Shown one piece after another: positions 356-64,000 of a stretch of DNA of 64,000 nucleotides. Position 1 is the stretch's first letter. Every line of letters begins with the position of its first letter. The DNA is from Eubacteriales bacterium (GTDB lineage: Bacteria > Bacillota > Clostridia > Christensenellales > CAG-138), in assembly GCA_035446965.1 (NCBI GenBank), contig DAOTGE010000005.1, positions 7,116-71,115 of the forward strand, given 5' to 3'. A program made the translations under genes and the position numbers. The notes under the pieces were generated by a model, which saw nothing but the letters and a program-made list of their open reading frames with translations, was not told the DNA's origin and did not search any database.

Positions 356-596
356 AAACCGCCCGGAACGGGCGGTTTGAGACCGTCAAAAAACTTGTTT
401 TTTGACGGGATAACCGCTCTTTGCCTCTCGTCCTTCGGACTTCCGGGCGGCAAAGAGCACAGAGAAACCGCCCGTTCCGGGCGATCCGTTACGCCGGATG
501 AACCGGCGCAGCCGGAATCAACGGGTTAAGGACCGCAGCCCTTAACAATCCCAAGGACTTTTTTGACAGGCTGAAACCGCCCGGAACGGGCGGTTT
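356..596 (+). repeat. Copy A of a ~195-bp hairpin-dense interspersed repeat (core ~379-573) bracketed by a 23-bp direct duplication of a terminator-like hairpin
   Basis: Core aligns by eye at roughly 90% identity with 2133-2325 (inverted) and 47955-48152. Stems: CCGTCAAAAAAC/GTTTTTTGACGG, GCTCTTTGCC/GGCAAAGAGC, CGCCCG/CGGGCG, GTTAAGG/CCTTAAC. AAACCGCCCGGAACGGGCGGTTT occurs at 356-378 and again at 574-596. Confidence 0.85.
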
Positions 597-2109: not shown

Positions 2110-2348
2110 AAAGGCGCGAATAAGCGCCTTTTAGCCTGATAAAAAAGCCTCTGGGATTGTTAAGGGCCGCAGTCCTTAACCCGTTTTTCCGGCTGCGCCG
2201 GTTCATCCGGCGGAACGGATCGCCCGGAACGGGCGGTTTCTTCGTGCTCTTTGCCGCCCGGAAGTCCGAAGGACGAGAGGCAAAGAGCGGTTGCTCCGTC
2301 AAAAAACTGGTTTTTTGACGGCCTCAAAGGCGCGAATAAGCGCCTTTT
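2110..2348 (-). repeat. Copy B (inverted) of the ~195-bp hairpin-dense repeat (core ~2133-2325) bracketed by a different 23-bp duplicated hairpin
   Basis: The reverse complement of 2133-2325 matches copy A almost base for base. AAAGGCGCGAATAAGCGCCTTTT occurs at 2110-2132 and 2326-2348. Both hairpins carry T/A runs, so they are bidirectional terminator-like. Confidence 0.85.
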
Positions 2349-2535
2349 TTGTGTGCCGGCAAGAGGGTACGCCGAAGAGTTCGGTGCCAAATCACGGCAT
2401 GGACCCCAACCGGTTTAAAACTGGATTTTGGAAGCGTGCTCAATGCGGGGACTCCCAAGGGATGCATCCCTGGGCTTGAGTGCAGGGGTGCCCCCCCTGC
2501 AAAAGAACTTTGCCGACAGAGTAAAGGCGCGCAAA

Positions 2536-13262: not shown

Positions 13263-13316
13263 CGCGCGGATTCAGATTCCCTTGAATAACAGACATTAAA
13301 AAGGCGCATACGCCTT

Positions 13317-13343
13317 TTTTTAATGGTGCGGCCGGAGGGATTT
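13317..13343 (-). repeat. 27-bp duplicate of the tRNA-Leu 3' end (partial T-arm, acceptor 3' strand, CCA) plus trailing A/T run; att-like tRNA fragment
   Basis: TTTTTAATGGTGCGGCCGGAGGGATTT is identical at 13317-13343 and 13497-13523. The fragment is followed (minus sense) by its own hairpin, GGCGTATGCGCC, plus a T-run. Confidence 0.8.
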
Positions 13344-13466: not shown

Positions 13467-13501
13467 AGAGCCGATAACGCCCGAGTTTATCGGCTCTTTT
13501 T
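13467..13501 (-). terminator. Hairpin terminator immediately downstream of tRNA-Leu (bidirectional)
   Basis: AGAGCCGATAA / TTATCGGCTCT 11-bp stem with T-runs on both strands. Confidence 0.7.
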
Positions 13502-13503
13502 AA

Positions 13504-13586
13504 TGGTGCGGCCGGAGGGATTTGAACCCTCAAGCTTTCGCCGACGGATTTTAAGTCCGTTGTGTATGCCGTTCCACCACGGCCGC
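13504..13586 (-). tRNA. tRNA-Leu (anticodon UAA), long variable arm, CCA encoded
   Basis: Reverse complement reads GCGGCCG-TG-GTGGAACGGCATACAC-A-ACGGA-CTTAAAA-TCCGT-(variable arm CGGCGAAAGCTTGA)-GAGGG-TTCAAAT-CCCTC-CGGCCGC-ACCA. This is a cloverleaf with a 7-bp acceptor stem and a TTCAAAT T-loop. Confidence 0.9.
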
Positions 13587-47740: not shown

Positions 47741-47744
47741 GCCA

Positions 47745-47954
47745 TCGGAAACAACTGGTTTTCAATGGGTTAATCGTTCTCTGCCGCTCTTTCTCCGGAC
47801 TCGCGGACGGCAAGGAGCACAGAGGAACCGCCCGTTCCGGGCGATCCGTTACGCCGGATGAACCGGCGCAGCCGGAATCAACAGGTTAAGGGCTGCGGCC
47901 TTTAACAATCCCAAGAACTTTTTTGACAAGCTGAAGCGCCCTGAACGGGCGCTC
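47745..47954 (+). repeat. Copy C1 of the hairpin-dense repeat (5' part diverged) ending in hairpin AGCGCCCTGAACGGGCGCTC
   Basis: From ~47815 onward it is nearly identical to copies A, B and C2 (GAACCGCCCGTTCCGGGCGATCCGTTACGCCGGATGAACCGGCGCAGCCGGAATCAAC...). It begins 5 nt after the J-protein stop. Confidence 0.8.
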
Positions 47955-48171
47955 GAGACCGTCAAAAAACCCGTTTTTTGACGGGATAACCGCTCTTTGC
48001 CTCTCGCCCTTCCGGGCTTCCGGGCGGCAAAGAGCACAAAGAAACCGCCCGTTCCGGGCGATCCGTTACGCCGGATGAACCGGCGCAGCCGGAATCAACA
48101 GGTTAAGGGCCGCGGCCCTTAACAATCCCAAGAACTTTTTTGACAGGCTGAAGCGCCCTGAACGGGCGCTC
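47955..48171 (+). repeat. Copy C2 of the hairpin-dense repeat, in tandem with C1, ending in the same hairpin plus a T-run
   Basis: Full-length core GAGACCGTCAAAAAAC...GACAGGCTGAA. The hairpin AGCGCCCTGAACGGGCGCTC is repeated at 47934-47954 and 48151-48171, and the second copy is followed by TTTTTT. Confidence 0.85.
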
Positions 48172-63803: not shown

Positions 63804-64000
63804 TAGCGGGTGCCGACCGTCATGAAACCTGCGTTTGGCGGGACCACCATGTTTTAACGGGGAATGGCAAAAGCGCAAAGACAGCGCATGAATCGCGCGA
63901 CAGGGTATGCCGGACGAACCGGCGCGGAGGCAATCGATGGACGCCAAGCGCTGCGATACGCAATAATACCTGACGGCGTTTTGATCGGATGCCTTTACCT

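Follow-up and report, generated by a model that had tools for sequence, protein, structure and literature searches.

Repeated cores and flanking hairpins in the window

The stretch of DNA analysed here, in the following called the window, comprises 64,000 nt of contig DAOTGE010000005.1 from an uncultured member of the Eubacteriales (CAG-138). It contains a core sequence of ~195 nt in four clear copies, named c1 (379–573, + strand), c2 (2133–2325, − strand), c3 (47744–47933, + strand) and c4 (47955–48150, + strand). These four copies had been recognized in an earlier note on this DNA, and sequence reading, repeat finding and a four-way alignment all confirm them. The best-conserved 23-mer of the core occurs four times in the window, compared with 0.01 occurrences expected by chance. 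A fifth, strongly diverged copy, c5 (63815–63990, + strand), was recognized by nhmmer with a model of the four copies (E=4.9e-6) and from its sequence.

The c1 copy has the full length of 195 nt (nhmmer score 232.9 bits, model positions 1–195, and alignment) and is placed between a gene for an RNase_T-family exonuclease and padR. Copy c2, also of full length (217.8 bits, and alignment), lies between the convergent genes for a HAAS-domain protein (+) and an MBL-fold hydrolase (−), and it was found as well in the strain variants L028 and L029 (designations of this kind denote fetched loci). The third copy, c3 (210.9 bits, model positions 4–195), begins directly at the stop codon of a DnaJ/TPR (J-protein) gene. 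It is older, being ~83% identical to the other copies, and its 5' hairpin is diverged or partly replaced. The full-length c4 (227.3 bits) is situated downstream of c3 in the terminator. Copy c5 begins 13 nt after the stop codon of a P-type ATPase gene and has no upstream hairpin, while its 3' flank is cut by the window end. It retains the central hairpin GCCGG-ACGAA-CCGGC. The host genes (exonuclease, hydrolase, chaperone, ATPase) are mutually unrelated.

Exact, locus-specific direct repeats of 21–23 nt, which are themselves GC hairpins, abut three of the window cores without any spacer. At locus 1, the hairpin AAACCGCCCGGAACGGGCGGTTT occupies 356–378 (+) upstream of c1 and is repeated over all 23 nt at 574–596 (+) downstream of it. 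At locus 2, the 23-nt hairpin AAAGGCGCGAATAAGCGCCTTTT is found at 2110–2132 on the 3' side of c2 and again, as an exact repeat, at 2326–2348 on its 5' side. At locus 3, the hairpin AAGCGCCCTGAACGGGCGCTC follows c3 at 47934–47954 (+) and recurs exactly behind c4 at 48151–48171 (+), resulting in a core-hairpin-core-hairpin layout. The earlier note had described an identical hairpin on both sides of the core at each locus. This is correct for three cores, but c3 carries a hairpin on its 3' side only. The hairpin at 47934–47954 is both the upstream copy of the c4 duplication and the original terminator behind c3.

The two copies of a hairpin differ in their surroundings. In terminator scoring, the downstream copies with T-runs score as intrinsic terminators, whereas the upstream copy of locus 1 does not on the + strand. 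The latter hairpin (356–378) has lost its T-run, and the 5' end of the element starts directly after it. Its counterpart at 574–596 retains the T-run TTTTGTTTG, gives a terminator-like call at 572–598 and is predicted to be the working terminator of locus 1. Similarly, the hairpin at 48151–48171 is followed by TTTTTT, is called terminator-like at 48152–48170 and is the predicted working terminator of locus 3. The hairpin at 2110–2132 is terminator-like on the − strand. With an A-run and a T-run it looks like a bidirectional terminator between convergent genes.

Single-hairpin loci in related genomes

Loci syntenic to locus 1 were fetched via homologues of the neighbouring HAAS-domain protein, and those for locus 3 via J-protein homologues. 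The spacer between the RNase_T gene and padR measures 375 nt in the window (hairpin-core-hairpin), compared with 169 nt in L176, which belongs to the metagenome-assembled genome (MAG) CAYTHS01, and 199 nt in L179 from a Logan assembly. In both the element is absent and a single terminator hairpin is present at the homologous place. The hairpin in L176 is followed by TTTTTTTGTTTG, as in the window.

For locus 3 a graded series was obtained. The locus L187, whose J protein shows 78% identity, has one hairpin, AGCGCCCTTCGGGGCGCT, between convergent genes and no element. L184 (J protein 82% identical) also has one hairpin and no element. In L180/L181 (89%) one element, the orthologue of c3, is followed by one hairpin, AAGCGCCCGGCAGGGCGCTC, which has the same stem as the locus-3 hairpin of the window. 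Copy c4 is absent from L180, L184 and L187, and in the window the order is c3, hairpin, c4 and the same hairpin again. This series from empty site to one copy to tandem pair indicates that c4 entered and duplicated the terminator behind c3. The core is thus a mobile sequence, and its pre-insertion sites carry one hairpin, not two (L176, L179, L187 and L184, and L180 for c4). Since the element-free orthologous loci possess a native hairpin, the flank is not a part of the element.

The earlier note had proposed a non-autonomous element that inserts at terminators and duplicates them, and this proposal is supported by the single-hairpin orthologous sites and by the paired flanks found elsewhere. 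[quoted passage not shown]

An origin without transposition was also considered, in which a unit of core and terminator would undergo local tandem duplication or gene conversion, or the units would be assembly artefacts. The core-hairpin-core-hairpin order at locus 3 and in L001 would fit such an origin, as would the locus L036, in which a c4-like copy is joined to another hairpin and gene, and repeats do confuse assemblies or recombine. However, the hairpins differ from locus to locus and are native in element-free orthologues. The tandem partners come from different subfamilies: c3 and c4 are 83% identical, and the two copies in L001 differ at subfamily-specific positions. Moreover, the copies are dispersed over many unrelated loci in several species, and the same structures turn up in assemblies that come independently from JGI, ENA, NCBI and Logan. 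A duplication or artefact is already contradicted by these data and is extremely improbable.

Two of the loci just mentioned deserve a separate remark. The tandem in L001 was examined as an orthologue of locus 3 and rejected, because the upstream proteins are unrelated. In the JGI contig L036 (3354–3600) the order DnaJ gene, c3, hairpin and c4-like copy is joined to a different hairpin, CGGCACTCTCTTGCGAGAGCGCCG, and to a histidine-kinase gene unlike the kinase gene of the window. This join arose either when element copies recombined or when the assembly became chimeric through the repeat.

Geometry of the duplication

Flanking hairpins in pairs, with at least 80% identity, are present in 22 of the 32 full-length copies that could be evaluated. 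The two hairpins are identical in 15 copies, among which one site appears twice, from two assemblies. In several diverged copies they differ by 1–4 mismatches, as expected of old duplications. Copies in other genomes thus also have paired flanks that differ between loci, as in the window. The length of the duplication, which had been given as 20–23 bp in the earlier note, ranges from 20 to 27 nt with a mode of 24 when the wider set of copies is included.

Most pairs abut both ends of the element and are symmetric about the hairpin dyad. The target hairpins have stems of 7–11 bp and loops of 3–6 nt, and the arms of the paired hairpins measure 8–11 nt. Their sequence is different at every locus, and no primary sequence or oligonucleotide is common to the targets. 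The duplicated segment does not coincide with the maximal palindrome: it is shorter at L014, L012, L009 and c2, and at L002, L003 and c4 it extends 1 nt further on either side. Consequently, the spacing acts as if measured by a ruler of 24 ± 2 bp that is centred on the dyad. Apart from this family, no elements bracketed by duplicated palindromes 60–4000 nt apart were found in all fetched DNA. The only other result of this search was an unrelated, repeated operator-like palindrome in L103.

Orientation and gene context

In the earlier note all copies were described as co-oriented with the gene immediately upstream. Copies c2, c3 and c4, and most copies elsewhere, are located between convergent genes, where co-orientation with the upstream gene is automatically true and hence largely uninformative. 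In tandem-gene contexts ~5 copies are co-oriented and 1–2 anti-oriented. The polarity of A-runs and T-runs around the duplications is mixed, and four of the window copies follow the leading strand while one does not. Whether compared with the upstream gene, the T-run or the direction of replication, the orientation of the copies is accordingly either not informative or not significantly biased, and no rule could be established.

Distribution of the family

An exact-match scan for the core 23-mer with one genome per species yielded 25 stretches, of which 23 lie in six MAGs and two are chance matches. The six MAGs with the element are labelled Oscillospiraceae, Eubacteriales, Christensenellaceae and Clostridiales. 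The MAG CAYTHS01 contributes at least 23 copies in its fetched loci, and additional ones come from the five other MAGs, from several metagenomes and from one contig of a viral collection. The hosts are uncultured Clostridia of the Oscillospiraceae/Christensenellales type from gut and digester. A metagenome scan for the 5' terminal repeat gave mostly chance 16-mer matches, with the short element in 8 among the 119 loci listed and a longer one in none of these, and a scan of viral contigs for the 5' hairpin gave one contig with an ordinary copy.

The closest relative of c1 within its own genome shares 94.9% identity with it, while a copy in CAYTHS01 reaches 95.4%, though the neighbouring proteins of that species are only ~72% identical. 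The comparison of these identities across and within genomes points to recent activity of the family in both genomes, or to horizontal spread between them.

Partial copies with only the 5' or the 3' two-thirds of the core occur at L019:669-807, L025:2109-2243, L023:5624-5756, L017:2-134 and L088:6751-6866. In L088, core positions 1–115 are fused to unrelated sequence. Lone short hairpins consisting of the terminal-repeat motif only, without the full core, were seen beside terminators at L003:160-215 and L011:994-1025, with CAGTCTGTCAAAAAAG..CTTTGAATTGACGGCAG and AGGCCGTCAAAAAACTAGTTTTCGACGGCCT as examples. These may be internally deleted copies or footprints.

The contig classed as viral (L056, IMGVR_UViG_3300010350_000220) contains one full copy at 376–571 with a 25-nt hairpin pair that is identical at 23 of 25 positions. 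The contig could serve horizontal spread as a vehicle, or a chromosomal fragment could have been misclassified here.

Structure of the core

The ends of the core form imperfect terminal inverted repeats that are conserved across copies, in which GAGACCGTCAAAAAAC from the 5' end and CTTTTTTGACAGGCTG from the 3' end, the latter taken as its reverse complement, agree at 12 of 16 positions. The 3'-end stretch CAGCCTGTCAAAAAAG, when reverse-complemented, likewise matches GAGACCGTCAAAAAAC at 12 of 16 positions. The 16-nt end repeat has also been given as GAGRCCGTCAAAAAAC for the 5' end, with GTTTTTTGACRGNCTS as the opposite boundary. A third, inverted copy of the terminal repeat builds the 5' hairpin of the element. 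The core has no coding capacity; only chance open reading frames (ORFs) of at most 50 aa are present inside it.

In total, the core folds into five local hairpins. Across 31 copies, 92% of the pair cells are paired, and in 17 of 54 base pairs both sides have changed with pairing kept, compared with 8.6 ± 1.8 in shuffles. The fold is far more stable than that of shuffled sequence on both strands (z = −9.4 sense, z = −8.4 reverse). Loop and linker sequences (an ATGAA loop and AACAATCCC) are kept even in the most diverged copies, and one helix contains two conserved U-G pairs on the sense strand of the element only. Outside this helix the strand test gave no signal, with 53 G-U and 54 A-C counts, so that nothing identifies a functional RNA strand. 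The kept pairing could be due to selection on RNA, to selection on folded single-stranded DNA during transposition or to templated correction of quasi-palindromes, and the data do not discriminate between these causes.

No known RNA family was recognized. At the gathering threshold, Rfam returned only a tRNA in the window and no match to the element. In a permissive search the best sub-threshold scores on the element were those of RNAI (17.8 bits, cutoff 47) and BSR0602 (12.3 bits, cutoff 191), both because of the terminator hairpins.

These structural data bear on the question whether the core is primarily a functional structured RNA, that is, a module of the 3' untranslated region (3'-UTR) or a small RNA (sRNA) produced with the upstream gene, which mobility only spreads and of which useful old copies are kept. 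The excess of pairing-keeping changes, the stable sense-strand fold, the conserved loop and linker and the sense-strand U-G pairs would all be in line with such a function, as would the preservation of c3 at the same site in a species with an 89% identical J protein and the position of several old copies directly after stop codons. On the other hand, there is no Rfam match, and neither the G-U/A-C counts nor the stability of the reverse strand reveals a strand. The host genes are unrelated, and the orthologous genes in related species manage without the element. Furthermore, compensatory changes in a DNA palindrome can come from templated quasi-palindrome correction without selection. We therefore consider a primary role as RNA unlikely.

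Two observations concern the internal hairpin P3. P3, AAACCGCCCGTTCCGGGCG, which is located for example at 466–484 and, reverse-complemented, at 2221–2239 in c2, is matched exactly, over 19/19 nt, by the reverse complement of the target hairpin of locus 1. Because of this complementarity, the c1 transcript is predicted to pair P3 with its 3' flank in a long-range helix of 20 bp. Since the target hairpins at other loci are unrelated to P3, the complementarity is either fortuitous, given the GC-rich terminator stems, or has an unexplained cause. A requirement that targets resemble P3 was rejected, since most target hairpins are unrelated to it. In addition, P3 on the strand opposite to the element (466–488, 47834–47856 and 48042–48064; in c2 2217–2239, there on the + strand) has TTTCT(C/T)TGTG behind it and is called terminator-like. 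The element may therefore carry a weak antisense terminator facing a convergent downstream gene.

Insertion model and comparison with known systems

For the MITE-like transposon we propose the following course of insertion. A transposase supplied in trans would recognize terminator-like palindromes by their shape, presumably attacking at the 5' feet of the hairpin or cruciform. The 3' ends of the element would be joined to opposite strands ~12 nt on either side of the dyad, with a stagger of 21–27 bp (mode 24), and gap repair would then copy the entire hairpin to both sides of the element. Since the upstream hairpin copy would be left without a T-run and the downstream copy with one, transcription of the upstream gene would read through the element and probably end at the regenerated terminator. 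The insertion would thus be nearly harmless, or near-neutral, to the host. The regenerated terminator could be targeted again, giving arrays such as c3-hairpin-c4-hairpin. A terminator that stays a target would explain the tandem arrays in the window, in L001 and in L011.

The enzyme is presumably a DDE transposase of the hairpin-targeting IS1182 kind, and palindrome-targeting transposition of the IS1182 type is the nearest relative. IS1272, a member of the IS1182 family, inserts into inverted-repeat or terminator structures of 22–30 bp without sequence consensus and deletes them; its targets have a stem of 9–12 bp and a loop of 4–6 nt (PMC4923244, PMC5678879). All 22 duplications of our family are hairpins of unrelated sequence, consistent with targets of the IS1272 type (22–30 bp; PMC5678879). 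The DDE insertion sequences (IS) IS1272/IS1182 of Firmicutes share with the present element a potential stem-loop as target, often a terminator, without consensus, and ends with inverted repeats of 16 bp. Unlike the observed insertions of IS1272, in which the hairpin is deleted or replaced without duplication, the family described here duplicates it. Unlike members of the IS1182 family, the element has 195 bp and no transposase gene, and no related autonomous IS was found in the window, among the metagenome loci listed or in a plasmid collection. A hairpin-duplicating alternative is contained in the model drawn for IS1272 as pathway b (PMC5678879), and direct repeats of 2–60 bp are given for the IS1182 family by ISfinder (PMC7335449). 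In the literature searched, this model and the ISfinder range are the only indications of a MITE or IS that duplicates whole terminators.

Several findings weigh against this transposon interpretation. The earlier note had reported no transposase, integrase or reverse transcriptase (RT) in the window, and indeed no such domain, nor a Cas1 or HUH domain, was detected in its 30 largest ORFs. Among the 119 metagenome loci listed there is no pair of terminal repeats 0.4–4 kb apart that would indicate an autonomous partner, and a blastn comparison of the element with a plasmid collection gave no match. In the precedent family, insertions have been observed for IS1272 only, and these delete the hairpin instead of duplicating it. 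An exact strain-level empty allele was not found, as the same-species contigs (~50 from many samples) either carry copies or break inside; the empty sites come from related species, and their hairpin loops or stems are diverged. The compensatory pairing of the internal hairpins is not required of a plain MITE mobilized by a DDE enzyme. Finally, about a third of the copies have no matching upstream hairpin. Among them c3, c5, L020, L021 and L180 start at the upstream stop codon, and such copies need secondary deletions or a second insertion mode.

One route to the loss of an upstream hairpin is directly visible. In L028 and L029, 196 bp beside c2 (window 2326–2521) are missing between 9-nt direct repeats, AAAGGCGCG. 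The deletion removes the right half of the 2326–2348 hairpin, and the stop codon of the hydrolase gene thus adjoins the element. In c3, the stop codon is followed by ~17 nt that are similar to a diverged arm of the 5' hairpin and also to the ancestral spacer of L187, and the sequence does not decide between them.

A different kind of enzyme was also taken into account, namely a non-DDE integrase that measures structure, either Cas1/casposase-like or of the hairpin-recognizing HUH type, and that cuts at both borders of the palindrome. The dyad-centred duplication of 24 ± 2 bp, which is not the maximal palindrome, suggests a ruler, and Cas1-Cas2 integration uses a ruler. The conserved internal hairpins would suit an enzyme that reads folded single strands, and the search for a DDE partner, in the window's 30 largest ORFs and among the metagenome loci listed, gave none. 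However, the same ORFs contain no cas1, HUH or other integrase gene either. Known HUH elements of the IS200/IS605 type are without terminal inverted repeats or target duplications, both of which are present here. A DDE transposase is used by the one family documented to target hairpins of such a size (PMC5678879). Hence, a non-DDE integrase is very improbable.

Somewhat broader is the conjecture of a shape-reading enzyme that would measure ~24 bp across the terminator palindrome and would constitute a new stem-loop-duplicating DDE branch or a non-DDE, Cas1-like integrase, with the element possibly doubling as a selected 3'-UTR RNA module. We regard this conjecture as quite doubtful. Staggered attacks at the borders of a palindromic or semi-palindromic unit are known from CRISPR spacer integration and casposons, where they duplicate a repeat tens of bp long. 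In contrast to these systems, neither a cas1 gene nor a CRISPR array is present here, the inserted element has 195 bp and inverted repeats, and many terminators are used instead of one repeat. The comparison with Cas1 is thus an analogy only.

The favoured MITE-like transposon agrees in most respects with described MITEs. It is shorter than ~500 bp, has no coding capacity, and occurs in dispersed copies with terminal inverted repeats and a target duplication for which single-copy empty sites exist. Like Correia/NEMIS, RUP, ERIC, BOX, Chunjie and QMITE it is a short non-coding repeat of intergenic regions that occurs in multiple copies and has terminal inverted repeats. In common with them, it is predicted to fold strongly, is flanked by direct repeats and is occasionally found in tandem or nested (PMC10969869). 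The typical target duplications of MITEs are fixed at 2–10 bp, whereas those found here are target-dependent, measure 20–27 bp and always comprise the whole hairpin. Both hairpins and IS1182 go unmentioned in a 2024 review of prokaryotic MITEs (PMC10969869).

Other hairpin-associated repeats differ more clearly. REP/BIME/REPIN sequences (RAYT) and the PATEs derived from IS200/IS605 are also intergenic, hairpin-rich and located after genes, often between convergent ones. However, they are themselves palindromes with conserved motifs and cause no target duplication. The family does not belong to REP/BIME/REPIN, as its conserved unit is the 195-nt core and not a palindrome of 20–40 nt, and as the flanking palindromes are locus-specific host terminators. 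Nor is it an IS200/IS605-derived PATE, since terminal inverted repeats and duplications of 20–27 bp are present and a fixed tetra- or pentanucleotide target is not. Bacterial class C group II introns insert beside intrinsic terminator stem-loops. Unlike the present element, these introns are ribozymes of at least several hundred nt, usually with an RT gene, and do not duplicate the target; the group II intron models of Rfam gave no match in the window.

Although there is precedent in the literature, the geometry of the duplication is unusual and mechanistically informative. Whole-hairpin duplications of 20–27 bp imply an integration machinery that would read DNA shape and cut symmetrically ~12 nt on each side of the dyad. 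In the literature searched, the duplicating outcome exists only as a drawn alternative pathway and as the unexplained ISfinder entry of '2-60 bp'. Dozens of natural insertions with clean junctions, together with the series of empty, single and double sites, make the duplication model testable. The element also illustrates a way for an insertion to be nearly harmless, as it lands after genes, would rebuild the terminator behind itself and would become a 3'-UTR extension. On the practical side, the repeats break metagenome assemblies of digester Clostridia and could mislead the annotation of terminators and sRNAs.

Minor observations

Between c2 and the stop codon of the MBL-hydrolase gene lies a segment of 187 nt (window 2349–2535), most of which falls within the deletion of L028 and L029. 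It contains the hairpins GCAGGGG..CCCCTGC and CCCAGGGATGCATCCCTTGGG. Similar motifs in the other orientation occur at L179:4545-4610 and beside an element copy in L018 (~2925–2950). The segment may be a second small repeat family.

A direct repeat of 33 nt with 94% identity is found at 13311–13343 and 13491–13523, 180 nt apart, and covers the 3' end of tRNA-Leu(taa) (13504–13586, − strand). It resembles a partial duplication of a tRNA such as integration events leave behind at their sites.

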